This document shows positions 18,307 through 32,058 of a DNA stretch of 64,000 nt, in pieces; the stretch's first letter is position 1, and the number at the start of each line of letters is the position of its first letter. Under the pieces are notes generated by a model. That model was not told the DNA's origin, ran no database searches, and worked only from the letters and a program-made list of their open reading frames with translations. This DNA is from a virus: positions 32,001 to 96,000 of IMG/VR virus record IMGVR_UViG_3300040801_002290. One strand, given 5' to 3'. The position numbers and the translations under genes were made by a program.

Positions 18307-18609
18307 CTACTCATCAGAGAAGCCAGACCAACCAACATCCCTTGCCTGAAAAGGCTCTCTGTGAACCAGTATAGGAATTCCATTACGCTCTACTGACTCT
18401 ACAAGGAAATGCCTATTGGAGACAAACCAAACCTCCCCATTGTCATTGACAACAGAAAAATAAGCTTCTGAATTCATCTCCCCATTATCATGGACATCCA
18501 AAACCAGGTAAAGTATGTCTGGGTTTAAAAATGCTTCCTGAGGAGTCGGACCTTCAACTATATCGCTTCCTTTATATGTATTAGGTCTAACCCACAAATC
18601 ATAGTTCAT
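18307..18609 (-). CDS. Hypothetical protein
   Basis: ATGA overlap with the upstream stop at 18606-18609. Confidence 0.6.
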   Translation of the reverse strand: MNYDLWVRPNTYKGSDIVEGPTPQEAFLNPDILYLVLDVHDNGEMNSEAYFSVVNDNGEVWFVSNRHFLVESVERNGIPILVHREPFQARDVGWSGFSDE

Positions 18610-19298
18610 ACAAGACTCTTTCTTTGCTGAATAGGAACGCAAGCCTCCCCGTAGTCCTTAATAAGAGCGTCCATATCGCTTATGGAGATAAAGGCATGTC
18701 CCTTCTTTCCCCAGTGCCTACCCCAACTGTTCTTGATTCTGAAAAGCCCCTTTTCCAGGTCAACACCGTTGATTACGTAAGCGTGTCCACCAGTGTTGGA
18801 GCCAGTTGCACGAATCAAGCCTTCTGCATCAGGATAGAACATGTCCTGCTTCCACCAAGTACCAACGATAACTGGACCTAGGGTTAGAATGGTTTGCGCT
18901 ACTTCGTCAGCGTTACTAGCCCACCTGTACTCTTTAATATGTCCCCACTCCTGCAAGACCTTCGCACCAGCACGTACGCTGGTACCATCGTATAGAGGGG
19001 TGGTACAGTCTCCAGGCCACGGGTCTAGCTTCTGAGCTTCACAATAAAGAACAGAAGTATCTATAGACGGTCTGTTCTTCTTGAAAATACTGGTTAACTG
19101 AGGGCCATCATTTAGCCAGTGAGCCCAAGAAAAAGCAACGCAGTGAGGGGTGTGACCCTGGTCTCCCCACCAACCCTCTGACCACCAAAATCTTTTGGTA
19201 GCGGTGGAGCGTCGAGAGACCAGCATTGGAGTTATGGGGTAAAGGCTGTCTCTGTCGTCCTCAACGTAAAGCCTCCCCATTGAATATTCTCTTGACAT
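18606..19298 (-). CDS. Papain-like cysteine peptidase (C1 family)
   Basis: DQG.TPHCVAFS, GGHAYVING, IKNSWG..WG. Confidence 0.88.
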   Translation of the reverse strand: MSREYSMGRLYVEDDRDSLYPITPMLVSRRSTATKRFWWSEGWWGDQGHTPHCVAFSWAHWLNDGPQLTSIFKKNRPSIDTSVLYCEAQKLDPWPGDCTTPLYDGTSVRAGAKVLQEWGHIKEYRWASNADEVAQTILTLGPVIVGTWWKQDMFYPDAEGLIRATGSNTGGHAYVINGVDLEKGLFRIKNSWGRHWGKKGHAFISISDMDALIKDYGEACVPIQQRKSLV

Positions 19299-19762
19299 TA
19301 TTCACCTCCCTGAGAGGAAAATAGAAATACTCCTGCTGGAATTCCAACTTCGGAGGTTATGGTGTAATTTCCCTCAAAGCTTCCTTCTAGGACTGAGCCC
19401 GTTAAACCAAGGGCAGTAATGTCTTCGCAGAAAACAATTAGGTCTACGCTTGCAGCAGTTTGAGTTCCACCAACAGAGCATGGTGCATCGTTGGTATCAA
19501 AAATCCAGTTTCCAGAAATGCTTCCACTTTCTGTCTGTGGAGCGAGATTCATATTCACTATAATTCTCTGATTTTCTTCATTGCCCGAAGCGTCGGTAAA
19601 GGAAAAGTAAATCGCCCCTACCCAATCTCCTTCTAGGAGGGTGGTCTCAACTACTGGTGGCGGGGGAAAAACTACATCTTCCTCTTCGTCTACCACGTCA
19701 GGTGGCCAACATGCCACCAAAAGAAGTGGTAAAATCGCAATTAAAAACAGCTTTTTTATCAT
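19298..19762 (-). CDS. Lipoprotein
   Basis: Signal peptide with LVAC lipobox. Confidence 0.7.
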   Translation of the reverse strand: MIKKLFLIAILPLLLVACWPPDVVDEEEDVVFPPPPVVETTLLEGDWVGAIYFSFTDASGNEENQRIIVNMNLAPQTESGSISGNWIFDTNDAPCSVGGTQTAASVDLIVFCEDITALGLTGSVLEGSFEGNYTITSEVGIPAGVFLFSSQGGE

Positions 19763-19779
19763 ATGTCTCCTTAAAATAG

Positions 19780-19805
19780 AGGGGCGAAGATATAACTACG
19801 CCCCT
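19780..19805 (-). terminator. Terminator-like hairpin after the micropeptide
   Basis: AGGGGCG/CGCCCCT stem followed by CTATTTT. Confidence 0.55.
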
Positions 19806-19810
19806 AATGA

Positions 19811-19852
19811 TTACTTACAACCGCACTTGCAACCGCATCCACATCCACACAT
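19811..19852 (-). CDS. 13-aa Cys/Gly-rich micropeptide MCGCGCGCKCGCK (absent from the ORF track)
   Basis: AAGGAGG SD 6 nt upstream, overlapping the nrdJ stop; mixed synonymous codons; TAA followed by a terminator. Confidence 0.7.
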   Translation of the reverse strand: MCGCGCGCKCGCK

Positions 19853-19863
19853 AGCTACCCTCC

Positions 19864-21741
19864 TTATGTAACTTCGCAACTGGCACCATAGCAAGCCAGA
19901 TTATCTGCCAATGATGTATTATCTTCTGGTTCAATGACCTTTGTCAAATCAACCATAGATAGAGTTTTAATCATTCTTTCGTATGTTTCAGCATCACAGT
20001 CCTCAAAAGGTGCCTGTTGATAACTGTGGTCACTGTGAGGCAGACAGGAAACAGCGGTAAAACTTTCGTTATGCTCCCAGAGGAAATCTCTAACTTCATC
20101 CCATTCGTCGTCCTTGATGTTAATAGTGCAACTAACGTTGTGGGTGTTGTCACCTAAAATATGTCCGGGCTTAATCCAATCCTCGTGCAGAAGCTGAACT
20201 CTTTCAAGAAGGCTTACGGCAGTTTCTGTGTGTCTAGTGACTGCGCCCTCTGGTGCCTTCTGTGGGACCGTAATTACCGCAGTCGTTTCTGGAGAGAAGA
20301 ATTCATCCTCGATTAGTTCTGGGTGGTAGATGGCTAGGTATGCGTAAATAGCCTCATTCTTGTTAACCCTAATCCTACGTAGGTAGTAGTCGTTGTGCCA
20401 CGCATGAACGCCTGAGGAGGAACCTAGAACTAGACTGGTGGTGCCACTAGGCTTAACCGTGGTAACTCTTCTAGCGTGGTTAATTCCTAGCATGTCAGCT
20501 ACTCTACGGTTCTCTTCTACAGAAACCTGAGCGGCTTGCTCCATGTCTAGCTTAGTTACTGTACCGCTCGCAATACCAGTCATGCTAACTCCGAGTAGAG
20601 CTTCCTTTTCCGCAGTCTCTCTCCACTCGTCCCTTAGGTAGTAGAAGTCGGTGTAAGCTGCTTGCAGAGTTCCGATAAAAGCAGCGGCCTTAGCTCTGGC
20701 GTTATAGTCGTCCTGGTCAACAATACTGGCTGCATTAATCTCTGTAAGGTTGCAAAAACCGTAAGGTTTCAATGAGATTTCCGCGCAGGGATTTGTGCCG
20801 ATTTCTTTGTCATTAGTGAAGTAAAATCCAGGCTCACCGGCACCGCTGGCACGCATGTATTCCCAAACCTCATTAAAGCTTTCTTTGTTCATGCGGTGAC
20901 GAAGCAGTACAGCGGAGTTGTTTGCCCTACCACGCTGAGGGTTCAACTCATACCAAGCACCGGACTTGGAAGAGGCCATAGCATTGTCGCCATAGCTGAA
21001 CAGTGAAATCATGGCTGCCCTACGAATACCCCCACTAAGAACCGCATCAGCAATATGGCACTGAATATCGTGAGCTTCTACAGTAGTTAGTTTTGAACCG
21101 GGTTCCTTTTCGGCTAAAATGGCTTCGATTTTCGTGAGACAGATTTTCAATGGCTCGGGACCTGGTGCCTTACCGCCACTAGTAACAAGACGAGCGCCCT
21201 TCTTACGAATGTCTCTAAAATCAAAAACTGGACGTGTGGTCTTTGAAGGGTCTAGATAAGCCCGCATAAGAACGAGGACGGCATCTGCCCATCCGGTGAT
21301 ACTATCGTCTACCAAAAACCTTCTTGTCTTCTGTGGCTTCTTAATAGGGGGAAGCTGCTCAACGTGGTGACGCTGAACAGAGTAACCAACACCGGTACCA
21401 GAAAGGAGAAGAAACATGGTCTCGGAAAAGGCTTCTATATCTTTTACGGGGAGGTAGGAACAGTTGTATAGCCTAGCATTGTTCAACTCTACTGCTCTAC
21501 CGGCAAACTGCATACTCCTCATGGAAGGCAGAACTTTCTTAGTCCTTACAAAGTTATCGTAGACTTCGGTAATCTCCTCAGCCAAAGCAGGAAACTTCTC
21601 AACATGCATTGCTAAGTTTCTGTCTACCAACTCATCCCAAGTCTCTCTTCTCTCTTCTTCTGGAAGGTACTTGGCGTACTTCATAAAGACGGTAATTTCA
21701 GAGAGAATATCTCTAGCTGTCTCATCCTGCCTTTTTGTCAT
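19864..21741 (-). CDS. nrdJ: Class II (B12-dependent) ribonucleotide reductase, monomeric type
   Basis: LPSMRSMQFAG, YNCS, GTNPCAEI, TVKPSGT, C-term ACYGASCE. Confidence 0.92.
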   Translation of the reverse strand: MTKRQDETARDILSEITVFMKYAKYLPEEERRETWDELVDRNLAMHVEKFPALAEEITEVYDNFVRTKKVLPSMRSMQFAGRAVELNNARLYNCSYLPVKDIEAFSETMFLLLSGTGVGYSVQRHHVEQLPPIKKPQKTRRFLVDDSITGWADAVLVLMRAYLDPSKTTRPVFDFRDIRKKGARLVTSGGKAPGPEPLKICLTKIEAILAEKEPGSKLTTVEAHDIQCHIADAVLSGGIRRAAMISLFSYGDNAMASSKSGAWYELNPQRGRANNSAVLLRHRMNKESFNEVWEYMRASGAGEPGFYFTNDKEIGTNPCAEISLKPYGFCNLTEINAASIVDQDDYNARAKAAAFIGTLQAAYTDFYYLRDEWRETAEKEALLGVSMTGIASGTVTKLDMEQAAQVSVEENRRVADMLGINHARRVTTVKPSGTTSLVLGSSSGVHAWHNDYYLRRIRVNKNEAIYAYLAIYHPELIEDEFFSPETTAVITVPQKAPEGAVTRHTETAVSLLERVQLLHEDWIKPGHILGDNTHNVSCTINIKDDEWDEVRDFLWEHNESFTAVSCLPHSDHSYQQAPFEDCDAETYERMIKTLSMVDLTKVIEPEDNTSLADNLACYGASCEVT

Positions 21742-22046
21742 TCTGACACCCCGCTGTATTCAGAAAAAGCCGCTTCGTAGTCTCTCTTCGCCCTGAGACC
21801 AGTAAATGTCTTTTTCTCTACTCCGTTTACAAAAAGCATAACCGTAGGAACGGCACGAATCTGATGCTTCATAGCCAATTCCTGAGCTTCATCAACGTTG
21901 ACCTTCAAAAACCGTAGGTTAGAGTATTTCTGTGAAAGGTCTTCCATGATTGGCCCAAGCATTCTGCAAGGCTGACACCAGGGGGCGGTAAAGTAAACCA
22001 CCGAGTTGGTGTAATCCATTTGTGATAATCCCGTAACTTCCGTCAT
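21738..22046 (-). CDS. trxA: Thioredoxin
   Basis: WCQPC, VPT. Confidence 0.92.
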   Translation of the reverse strand: MTEVTGLSQMDYTNSVVYFTAPWCQPCRMLGPIMEDLSQKYSNLRFLKVNVDEAQELAMKHQIRAVPTVMLFVNGVEKKTFTGLRAKRDYEAAFSEYSGVSE

Positions 22047-31196: not shown

Positions 31197-32058
31197 AGAC
31201 CTAAGAGAAAAACTAGAGTTTGCGGAAAACAACCCGGTAATATTCAACCAGAGGAACGTTTTAAATAAGGGGTTCGTACGACTGGTTGATTGGATTGGTA
31301 GCGACTCAAGGGTGGTTCAAGCAGCTAGGGTGTCTTATGGCAAAGGAACTAAGACCATAAGAGAAGACTCTGGTCTCATCGACTATCTTATGAGACATCG
31401 ACACACCTCACCTTTTGAGATGGTGTCGTTTACCTTTCATATTAAGCTGCCTCTGTTTGTCTTTGCCCAGCTAGTCAGACACAGGACCGCCAGCCTTAAT
31501 GCTAAGTCTGCAAGGTACTCTGTCATGGAAGATGAGTTTTATATTCCCGAGGAATTTAGACTGCAAAGCATGGAGAATAAGCAAGGAAGCGATAGCGTCC
31601 TCTCTGAGGAAACAAACCAATTTGCTATCAATAGCCTGATAAACTTCTGTGACGAGACTTATGGGGATTATGAATACCTTATTCAAATGGGTGTAGCTAG
31701 AGAACAGGCTCGTATGATTCTTCCTCAAAACCTTTACACGGAGGTCTATTGGACCCAGAATCTGCACAATCTTCTGCACCTTCTAAAGTTACGTCTTGAC
31801 CCTCACGCCCAGCAGGAGATTCGTGAATACGCAGAGGCGATTCATGAAATCATCACACCTATAGTGCCAATGTCCTTAGACTCCTGGGAAAAGCACGTTC
31901 TAGACAGCGTTTCTCTCTCAAAAGATGAAGTAGATATACTTATCAGAGCCGCCAAGGGGGACTCCCTAGAGGATGCTATGGTCTCTCATGCAGAACACAT
32001 GTCAAAGGGGTATGCTAGAGAAGTGCGAGAGAAGATTAGTAAACTGATTGGAAAATAA
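31189..32058 (+). CDS. thyX: Flavin-dependent thymidylate synthase
   Basis: QAARVSY, RHRHTSPFE, QLVRHRTAS..SARY, REQAR..LP, RL..HAQ.EIR. Confidence 0.95.
   Translation: MIEDLREKLEFAENNPVIFNQRNVLNKGFVRLVDWIGSDSRVVQAARVSYGKGTKTIREDSGLIDYLMRHRHTSPFEMVSFTFHIKLPLFVFAQLVRHRTASLNAKSARYSVMEDEFYIPEEFRLQSMENKQGSDSVLSEETNQFAINSLINFCDETYGDYEYLIQMGVAREQARMILPQNLYTEVYWTQNLHNLLHLLKLRLDPHAQQEIREYAEAIHEIITPIVPMSLDSWEKHVLDSVSLSKDEVDILIRAAKGDSLEDAMVSHAEHMSKGYAREVREKISKLIGK

Follow-up and report, generated by a model that had tools for sequence, protein, structure and literature searches.

A cysteine-rich micro-gene at the end of a phage thioredoxin-nrdJ operon, with a possibly metallothionein-like product

The end of the thioredoxin-nrdJ operon

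The subject of this report is an open reading frame (ORF) of 13 codons, six of them for cysteine, that lies directly behind the gene for a B12-dependent ribonucleotide reductase (RNR) in a stretch of viral DNA 64,000 nucleotides (nt) long (IMG/VR record IMGVR_UViG_3300040801_002290, positions 32,001 to 96,000). That stretch, called the window, is part of a virus record of 194 kb, estimated to be 97% complete. I argue, from comparison of sequences, that this frame of 42 nt really is a micro-gene for a protein, one that gene finders have overlooked, and then consider what its product might do. The features that matter most all lie on the minus strand:

21738..22046, minus: thioredoxin gene (trx), 102 amino acids (aa), first in the unit (ORF list; Pfam PF00085, E = 2.7e-22)
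19864..21741, minus: nrdJ, monomeric-type class II (B12-dependent) RNR, 625 aa (translation; Pfam Ribonuc_red_lgC)
19859..19865, minus: Shine-Dalgarno (SD) sequence AAGGAGG, overlapping the nrdJ stop TAA at 19866-19864 (sequence)
19811..19852, minus: micro-ORF, 13 codons plus TAA, encoding MCGCGCGCKCGCK (translation; orthologs at the same position in eight other lineages; unique in the genome)
19813..19837, minus: in-frame 12-nt tandem duplication within the micro-ORF, CGCK CGCK (Tandem Repeats Finder, TRF: period 12, 2.1 copies, 92% match)
19773..19805, minus: terminator-like hairpin, 7+2 base pairs, GC-rich, then CUAUUUU (fold -14.9 kcal/mol, z = -2.95)

The stop codon of the thioredoxin gene (22046..21738) overlaps the start of nrdJ. 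The sole match of NrdJ in PDB is the monomeric ribonucleoside triphosphate reductase (RTPR) of L. leichmannii, 1L1L (E = 1.8e-42), which marks the enzyme as NrdJm-like; its match to the Pfam RNR-II insertion domain falls slightly under the cut-off. The protein ends in ...LACYGASCEVT, where CYGASC is the redox pair. An earlier reading of this DNA (the original prediction) had placed the nrdJ stop TAA inside an AAGGAGG SD, 6 nt ahead of an ATG at 19852, and these coordinates are correct, the spacer being GTAGCT. The frame that follows reads ATG TGT GGA TGT GGA TGC GGT TGC AAG TGC GGT TGT AAG TAA. Translation bears out the claim that six of its 13 residues are Cys in CxC spacing (CxCxCxCxCxC in full) and that both Cys codons are used, TGT and TGC three times each; the Gly codons are two GGA and two GGT. 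Beginning 5 nt 3' of the stop codon is a hairpin stem, AGGGGCG...CGCCCCU, at 19805-19780, and its z-score and the CUAUUUU behind it agree with the terminator that had been predicted there. With the thioredoxin gene overlapping the start of nrdJ and the micro-ORF as the last cistron, the predicted trx-nrdJ-peptide unit stands as well.

How such a gene might be expressed can be read from this layout. Ribosomes that end translation of nrdJ would halt within the SD of the micro-gene, coupling the translation of the two, and because the nrdJ stop lies inside that SD, synthesis of NrdJ probably always brings synthesis of the peptide with it. Transcription would end mostly at the hairpin just 3' of the micro-gene. 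The product would be a peptide of 13 residues, or 12 (CGCGCGCKCGCK) if the initiator methionine is removed before Cys. I propose, then, that the micro-gene is the last, translationally coupled cistron of the thioredoxin-nrdJ transcription unit, its translation being predicted from these signals.

Cysteine-rich frames in related and unrelated phages

A BLASTN search of GenBank phages with the trx-nrdJ-peptide region gave no match, and no relatives were found in IMG/VR by way of a clade-specific 177-aa protein or of the C1 peptidase encoded nearby. Loci recovered by NrdJ from IMG/VR, metagenomes and GTDB carry reductases only 54-64% identical to that of the window, and none has the peptide. Closer relatives, with NrdJ 78-90% identical, came from a protein collection, and the contigs fetched for them bring the number of distinct lineages to 12. 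The original prediction had made conservation in related phages one of its tests, and this is what was found: in 9 of the 12 lineages the same spot, -4 to +24 nt from the nrdJ stop, holds an ORF of 11-19 codons that has 4-9 Cys and is led by a GGAGG SD. The encoded peptides are as follows:

Window: MCGCGCGCKCGCK
L095/L096: MCDCGCKTCGCR
L097: MCPCGNKCGCGCR
L098: MCPCGTSCGCK
L099: MCDCKSCNCGKDCKCGK
L100/L101: MRCPCGCGCGAAS
L102: MNCCCCDDCNCECPCCGD
L103: MRCPCGCSCGCK
L187/L188: MMKKCPCGCGWGDCDCCGK

These peptides are very different in sequence, and their nucleotides can barely be aligned. What has been retained is the start codon, the SD (GGAGG in all nine, 6-9 nt from the ATG), the frame, the early stop and the density of Cys. 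The frame is intact in every ortholog, despite the differing lengths, and both Cys codons are in use.

Three lineages (L093, L094 and L184-186) keep nrdJ and lack the micro-ORF. The next gene begins 9 nt past the nrdJ stop or overlaps it in L094 and L184-186, and begins 39 nt past it in L093. In a tree of NrdJ, where the clade has support of 100/100, L093 and L094 are sisters, and the ORF is found both in basal branches (L100, L098 and L097 with L103) and in derived ones. Because of this distribution, the micro-ORF looks ancestral to the clade and lost at least twice.

Several of the nrdJ relatives (L094:2001-4790, L099:2001-4730, L100:2001-4916 and L103:2001-4787) encode proteins of 909-971 aa. 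The long ones have Pfam hits to intein and homing-endonuclease families (LAGLIDADG_3, Intein_splicing, Hom_end); the window copy, of 625 aa, is free of inteins.

It might be argued that the frame has no function at all, that it is a chance ORF born of a short (TGYGGN)n repeat beside a leftover SD. The window copy does have the look of a repeat: its 5' half is TGTGGA twice over and its 3' half is the 12-nt unit TGCGGTTGYAAG twice over. Moreover, the exact M(CG)n ORFs that occur elsewhere in IMG/VR are microsatellites with a dinucleotide or hexanucleotide unit. Mixed codons had been offered as an argument against a DNA repeat, and that argument does not survive, for half of the ORF is the tandem duplication found by TRF; since the micro-ORF is partly repetitive at the level of DNA, codon mixing alone is no proof of selection. 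A search by sequence pattern, proposed along with it as a check, divided in its outcome: a scan of IMG/VR for ATG(TGYGGN)3TGY returned only those microsatellite-like M(CG)n frames, which lack an SD and share no context, while the contigs with nrdJ gave the orthologs.

Those nine divergent orthologs speak against a chance ORF: they keep ATG, SD, frame, early stop and a Cys content of 31-50% where the nucleotides have drifted almost beyond alignment. Nor does the background supply such frames. As controls I took 240 loci around nrdJ relatives 54-64% identical (80 from IMG/VR, 80 from metagenomes and 80 from GTDB genomes, 1.26 Mb altogether). They contain eight ATG ORFs of 8-25 codons with at least four Cys, none of the eight led by an SD and none lying behind nrdJ, a background rate of zero. 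On both strands of the 194-kb genome, the micro-ORF is the only ORF of up to 40 codons with at least four Cys (at least 25% Cys), and each locus of the clade likewise holds only one. The window has five AAGGAGG-N4-9-ATG sites, where 0.98 would be expected, and the site of the micro-ORF is one of them. Across the genome, 29 of 44 GGAGG-N4-9-ATG sites open ORFs of more than 60 aa, and so a site of this kind is usually a true start. The position of the terminators, 3' of the ORF, also speaks against chance. The comparative data already strongly disfavor a functionless frame, and I regard it as very improbable.

A second case turned up in a group of phages unrelated to that of the window. A search of IMG/VR for an SD followed by the pattern MCPCG led to MCPCGKCVCGK. 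Its micro-ORF lies between a 488-aa gene, whose stop is overlapped by the SD of the micro-ORF, and a portal gene (phrog_2833) just downstream. Relatives of that portal gene have, in the same slot, MPCPCNGDCVCGK (in two lineages), MSDPNCPCGGSCIGGC and MTNPCSCNGNCYGSCQR. The SD-led micro-ORFs linked to portal genes, each with four Cys, are:

L339:1133-1168
L340:1132-1173
L341:1132-1173
L343:1119-1169
L347:1119-1172

The two copies of MPCPCNGDCVCGK differ in 9 of 13 codons, and their flanks have diverged. All nine differences are synonymous and none is non-synonymous, which shows directly that purifying selection acts on the peptide. This kind of micro-gene, whether by homology or by convergence, is on the comparative evidence present in unrelated phages, in one case beside an early DNA-metabolism gene and in the other beside a late structural gene. 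No related portal was found in the genome of the window, and a search with the 488-aa neighbor returned only its own contig. Between the portal-linked micro-ORF and the start of the portal gene, a motif resembling CTGTATA(G/T)TAA is conserved.

Downstream genes, attenuation and peptide maturation

A terminator hairpin stands 3' of the micro-ORF, and not of nrdJ, in five lineages (window, L097, L098, L100 and L103; z = -2.0 to -5.5), those of the other four being stronger than that of the window. The ORF therefore lies inside the transcript, as its last cistron. In L095, L099 and L102, the stop of the micro-ORF abuts or overlaps the SD or the start of the gene that follows, which encodes a lipoprotein.

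Two other ideas about expression were set aside. Fusion of the peptide to NrdJ by read-through or frameshifting was rejected, because the frame offset varies (0 or +2) and stop codons intervene. The other concerns a near-consensus sigma-70-like sequence, TTGACA-18-GATAAT (11 of 12 positions), within the 3' end of nrdJ at 19947-19918 on the minus strand, about 66 nt ahead of the micro-ORF ATG. As the peptide's own promoter it was rejected: it is intact in L093, which has no peptide, and degraded in L097, L100 and L103, which do. It is not counted as part of the unit, because it is built by the codons of a conserved DLT...DN and does not co-vary with the peptide.

The neighbor in the window lies outside the peptide's unit:

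19298..19762, minus: next gene, a predicted lipoprotein of 154 aa with signal peptide, LVAC lipobox and an SD of its own (translation)

Its product matches no Pfam or PHROG family, and the gene is found 3' of nrdJ in relatives with and without the micro-ORF. At 18606-19762 (minus strand) this lipoprotein, with its LVAC lipobox and an acidic, Pro-rich linker, is followed by an overlapping gene for a papain-family C1 peptidase (phrog_16701). The pair is kept 3' of nrdJ in most members of the clade, whether the micropeptide is there or not. In L187 (3437-3496) and L188, the Cys-rich micro-ORF overlaps the nrdJ stop (ATGATG), and the called start of the lipoprotein (3456) falls within the micro-ORF. 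The true start of the lipoprotein in these contigs probably lies further on, and the public gene call looks wrong. Elsewhere in the genome, ahead of the window start (C1:223-20417), ARAGORN finds 31 tRNA genes, including one for tRNA-Cys(GCA), and a tmRNA with the tag ...ASYNPQALAA.

A short ORF full of Cys codons might also act in cis. The speed of a ribosome on those codons would report the level of charged tRNA-Cys and steer either read-through of the terminator or coupling to the lipoprotein and peptidase genes. There is precedent in mycobacteria, where short polycysteine ORFs are proven attenuators, the 'Cys ribulon' (Canestrari et al., bioRxiv 10.1101/834739). They resemble the present case in being unannotated, very short, rich in Cys codons and part of operons. 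The geometry is also suitable: with the stop codon of the window's ORF 5 nt ahead of the hairpin, a terminating ribosome would cover its 5' arm, and in L095, L099 and L102 the junction with the next gene is tight, as described above. However, the mycobacterial ORFs are leaderless, come first, stand upstream of genes for cysteine metabolism, and work through a structure that sequesters a ribosome-binding site. The ORF in the window is led by an SD and comes last, as its counterparts often do before a terminator (five of nine lineages), and the genes downstream are not genes of cysteine metabolism. No stable structure hides the downstream SD, either. In a 111-nt fold (z = -0.47) nothing is stable apart from the local terminator hairpin, and the centroid structure leaves the downstream SD unpaired. 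Except in L102, the Cys codons form no run and alternate with others. L097, L098, L100 and L103 have strong terminators with genes beyond them that differ from those of the window, and because the genes past the terminators differ between lineages, there is no common target to be regulated. Finally, what is conserved in the portal-linked clade is the whole peptide (13 of 13 residues, through nine synonymous changes), not just its Cys codons. I consider a sensor of this sort quite unlikely.

A further idea is that the peptide is the precursor of a ribosomally synthesized and post-translationally modified peptide (RiPP), matured by neighboring enzymes; the original prediction had mentioned a RiPP-like precursor. 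In its favor, the peptide is very short and Cys-rich, and the papain-family gene is only two genes downstream. Yet 11-13 residues leave no space for both leader and core, and no leader sequence is apparent. Neither the unit nor its neighbors include a gene for a radical-SAM enzyme, YcaO, a lanthipeptide enzyme or any other maturase. As for the peptidase and its lipoprotein, they occur also in lineages without the peptide, and behind the peptide they are missing in L097, L098, L100 and L103. The suggestion is poorly supported on these grounds, and I give it hardly any credence.

What the peptide may do

The sole property conserved across lineages is a dense array of Cys, spaced as CxC or CPC and separated by small or charged residues. 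The peptides often begin with CPCG and often end with CG(C)K or CG(C)R, and the residues between the Cys are Gly, Lys, Asp, Asn, Ser and Pro. In all nine orthologs, 31-50% of residues are Cys (4-9 in 11-19), with CxC predominant. Eight of the nine have no aromatic residue or His, and the ninth (L187/L188) has a single Trp. A composition rich in CxC, poor in aromatic residues, and rich in Lys and Gly is what defines metallothioneins, and the likeness to them that had been noted for the window peptide extends in this way to the orthologs, with their repeated CxC, their fillers of Gly, Lys, Asp, Asn and Pro, and an aromatic residue in only one.

I propose that the micro-gene most likely makes a metallothionein-like thiolate peptide that binds metal, a reading in which I have only somewhat more belief than doubt. 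The peptide would be a minimal chelator whose thiolates hold a soft metal ion, be it Zn, Cu(I), Cd or Fe; a single tetrathiolate site, or a small cluster, can be built from four to six Cys. Beyond the Cys content, the likeness to metallothioneins takes in CC besides repeated CxC, fillers of Gly, Lys, Ser, Asp and Asn, and change of length by in-frame duplication of a unit. The differences are plain too. The shortest metallothioneins known include fungal copper proteins of about 25 residues, such as that of Neurospora crassa, and those of plants have CxC-rich N-domains; the peptides considered here, at 11-19 residues, are about half the size of the smallest described. They are also encoded by phages, in the last cistron of an operon for DNA metabolism, and they are predicted from sequence. 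The peptide may work in the manner of a minimal metallothionein, but I would assign it to no family described so far.

Several observations weigh against metal binding of this kind. Six of the peptides, padded to at least 20 aa, gave no Pfam match to a metallothionein or to SEC-C at E <= 10, though queries so short and of such low complexity are nearly unsearchable. The peptides with four Cys (MCPCGTSCGCK and MRCPCGCGCGAAS) could bind at most one ion and would make a poor buffer unless they were abundant or formed oligomers. The tight coupling of the micro-ORF to nrdJ in translation, with a thioredoxin gene adjacent, would also fit a redox role with the reductase. And because three lineages have lost the gene, its function must be dispensable. 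A role of the CxC motifs in thiol-disulfide chemistry is the second possibility after metal binding, in keeping with the thioredoxin gene at the head of the operon.

The motif is, by its sequence, close to the SecA-like metal-binding motif. A 27-residue peptide from the metal-binding domain of SecA, with the motif CXCXnC(H/C), binds Zn and Fe (bioRxiv 10.1101/613315). SEC-C motifs have about 20 residues, start with CPCG, end with CCGK or CHG, and bind Zn or Fe as isolated peptides. One ortholog, that of L187/L188 (KKCPCGCGWGDCDCCGK), has the exact spacing CPC-X8-CC-GK; it alone has CXC-X8-C(H/C), the window peptide being CxCxCxCxCxC and most orthologs CPCG-x0-3-CxC. The ORFs described here are free-standing, whereas SEC-C is found at the C-terminal end of larger proteins; its conserved Ser and its conserved aromatic residue are both absent from the micro-ORF products. 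The padded peptides gave no match to PF02810 (SEC-C). The pattern that found the portal-linked micro-ORFs also matched SEC-C tails (proteins ending in ...APCPCGSGKKYKYCCGK), and two phage proteins with a canonical SEC-C tail (ending in ...NAPCPCGSGKKYKYCCGK) share the same DNA pattern (L394:1638-1710 and L397:2940-3001).

There remains the gene next door. The original prediction had the peptide serve the synthesis of deoxynucleotides, and one can imagine a partner dedicated to the monomeric class II RNR, for redox chemistry or for zinc, either an array of six Cys acting in trans like a cysteine-rich domain (CRD) or a CxC relay from thioredoxin to the CYGASC tail. The position of the micro-ORF suits such a partner, since it lies within the trx-nrdJ unit, always -4 to +24 nt from the nrdJ stop, with its SD at or beside that stop. 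There is even a precedent in the split enzyme NrdJa+b, where the Cys-rich RNR module, NrdJb, has a downstream gene to itself (PMC5704485), and CxC peptides can catalyze thiol-disulfide exchange in vivo (bioRxiv 10.64898/2026.01.27.701630). The CRD of non-monomeric class II enzymes comprises 150-220 aa, with six invariant C-terminal Cys that serve both to bind Zn and to pass on electrons (Loderer et al. 2017, PMC5704485). The likeness consists in a Cys array tied to a B12-dependent RNR and in the existence of a subclass that encodes its CRD in a separate gene beside the catalytic one. However, the window peptide has 13 aa (its orthologs 11-19), the Cys count varies and is not six invariantly, the peptide is dispensable, and NrdJ here matches only the monomeric RTPR 1L1L; a CRD is never present in NrdJm enzymes.

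The comparative evidence also tells against a partner of the reductase. Three of the 12 lineages keep nrdJ and do without the peptide, as do all 240 of the more distant nrdJ loci, although the short C-x4-C tail is found in their NrdJ proteins too. No fused form exists among the 121 NrdJ proteins nearest to that of the window, none of which has more than two Cys in its last 25 residues. And a micro-ORF of the same kind stands ahead of the portal gene of unrelated phages. The claim of specific service to deoxynucleotide synthesis is not supported by these facts, and a dedicated partnership seems to me unlikely. The place of the micro-gene behind nrdJ looks like a gene order inherited within one phage clade, and the comparisons made here give no evidence for a role as subunit or cofactor of the reductase.

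One could go further and combine these ideas. Phages might carry widespread, never-annotated CxC/CPC thiolate peptides the size of phytochelatins (11-19 aa), the smallest ribosomally made metallothioneins known, which move from one gene neighborhood to another and in this one are co-translated to serve the monomeric B12 reductase as a Zn or thiol relay in trans, a minimal functional analogue of the CRD that the enzyme lacks. So elaborate a picture is improbable. The roles of attenuator, RiPP precursor and RNR subunit are each poorly supported, and a metal-binding thiolate peptide is the reading I prefer.

No description of an nrdJ-linked micropeptide gene of this sort was found in the literature searched. 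One survey of small ORFs sets a floor of 15 codons (PMC11188072); if translated, the micro-genes of 11-13 codons would lie under it and be among the shortest functional protein-coding genes known. An SD overlapping the stop of a long gene, with a terminator a few dozen bases on, is a signature that could be used to find other hidden cistrons, and the present case provides a CxC/CPC skeleton (4-9 Cys in 11-19 aa) with a clear comparative signal. Being accessible by chemical synthesis, the peptide lends itself to direct and cheap tests of its chemistry. If the proposal is true, phages bring peptides of their own into the infection to handle metals or thiols, with consequences for the management of Zn, Cu or Fe and for the thiol redox balance of the infected cell.

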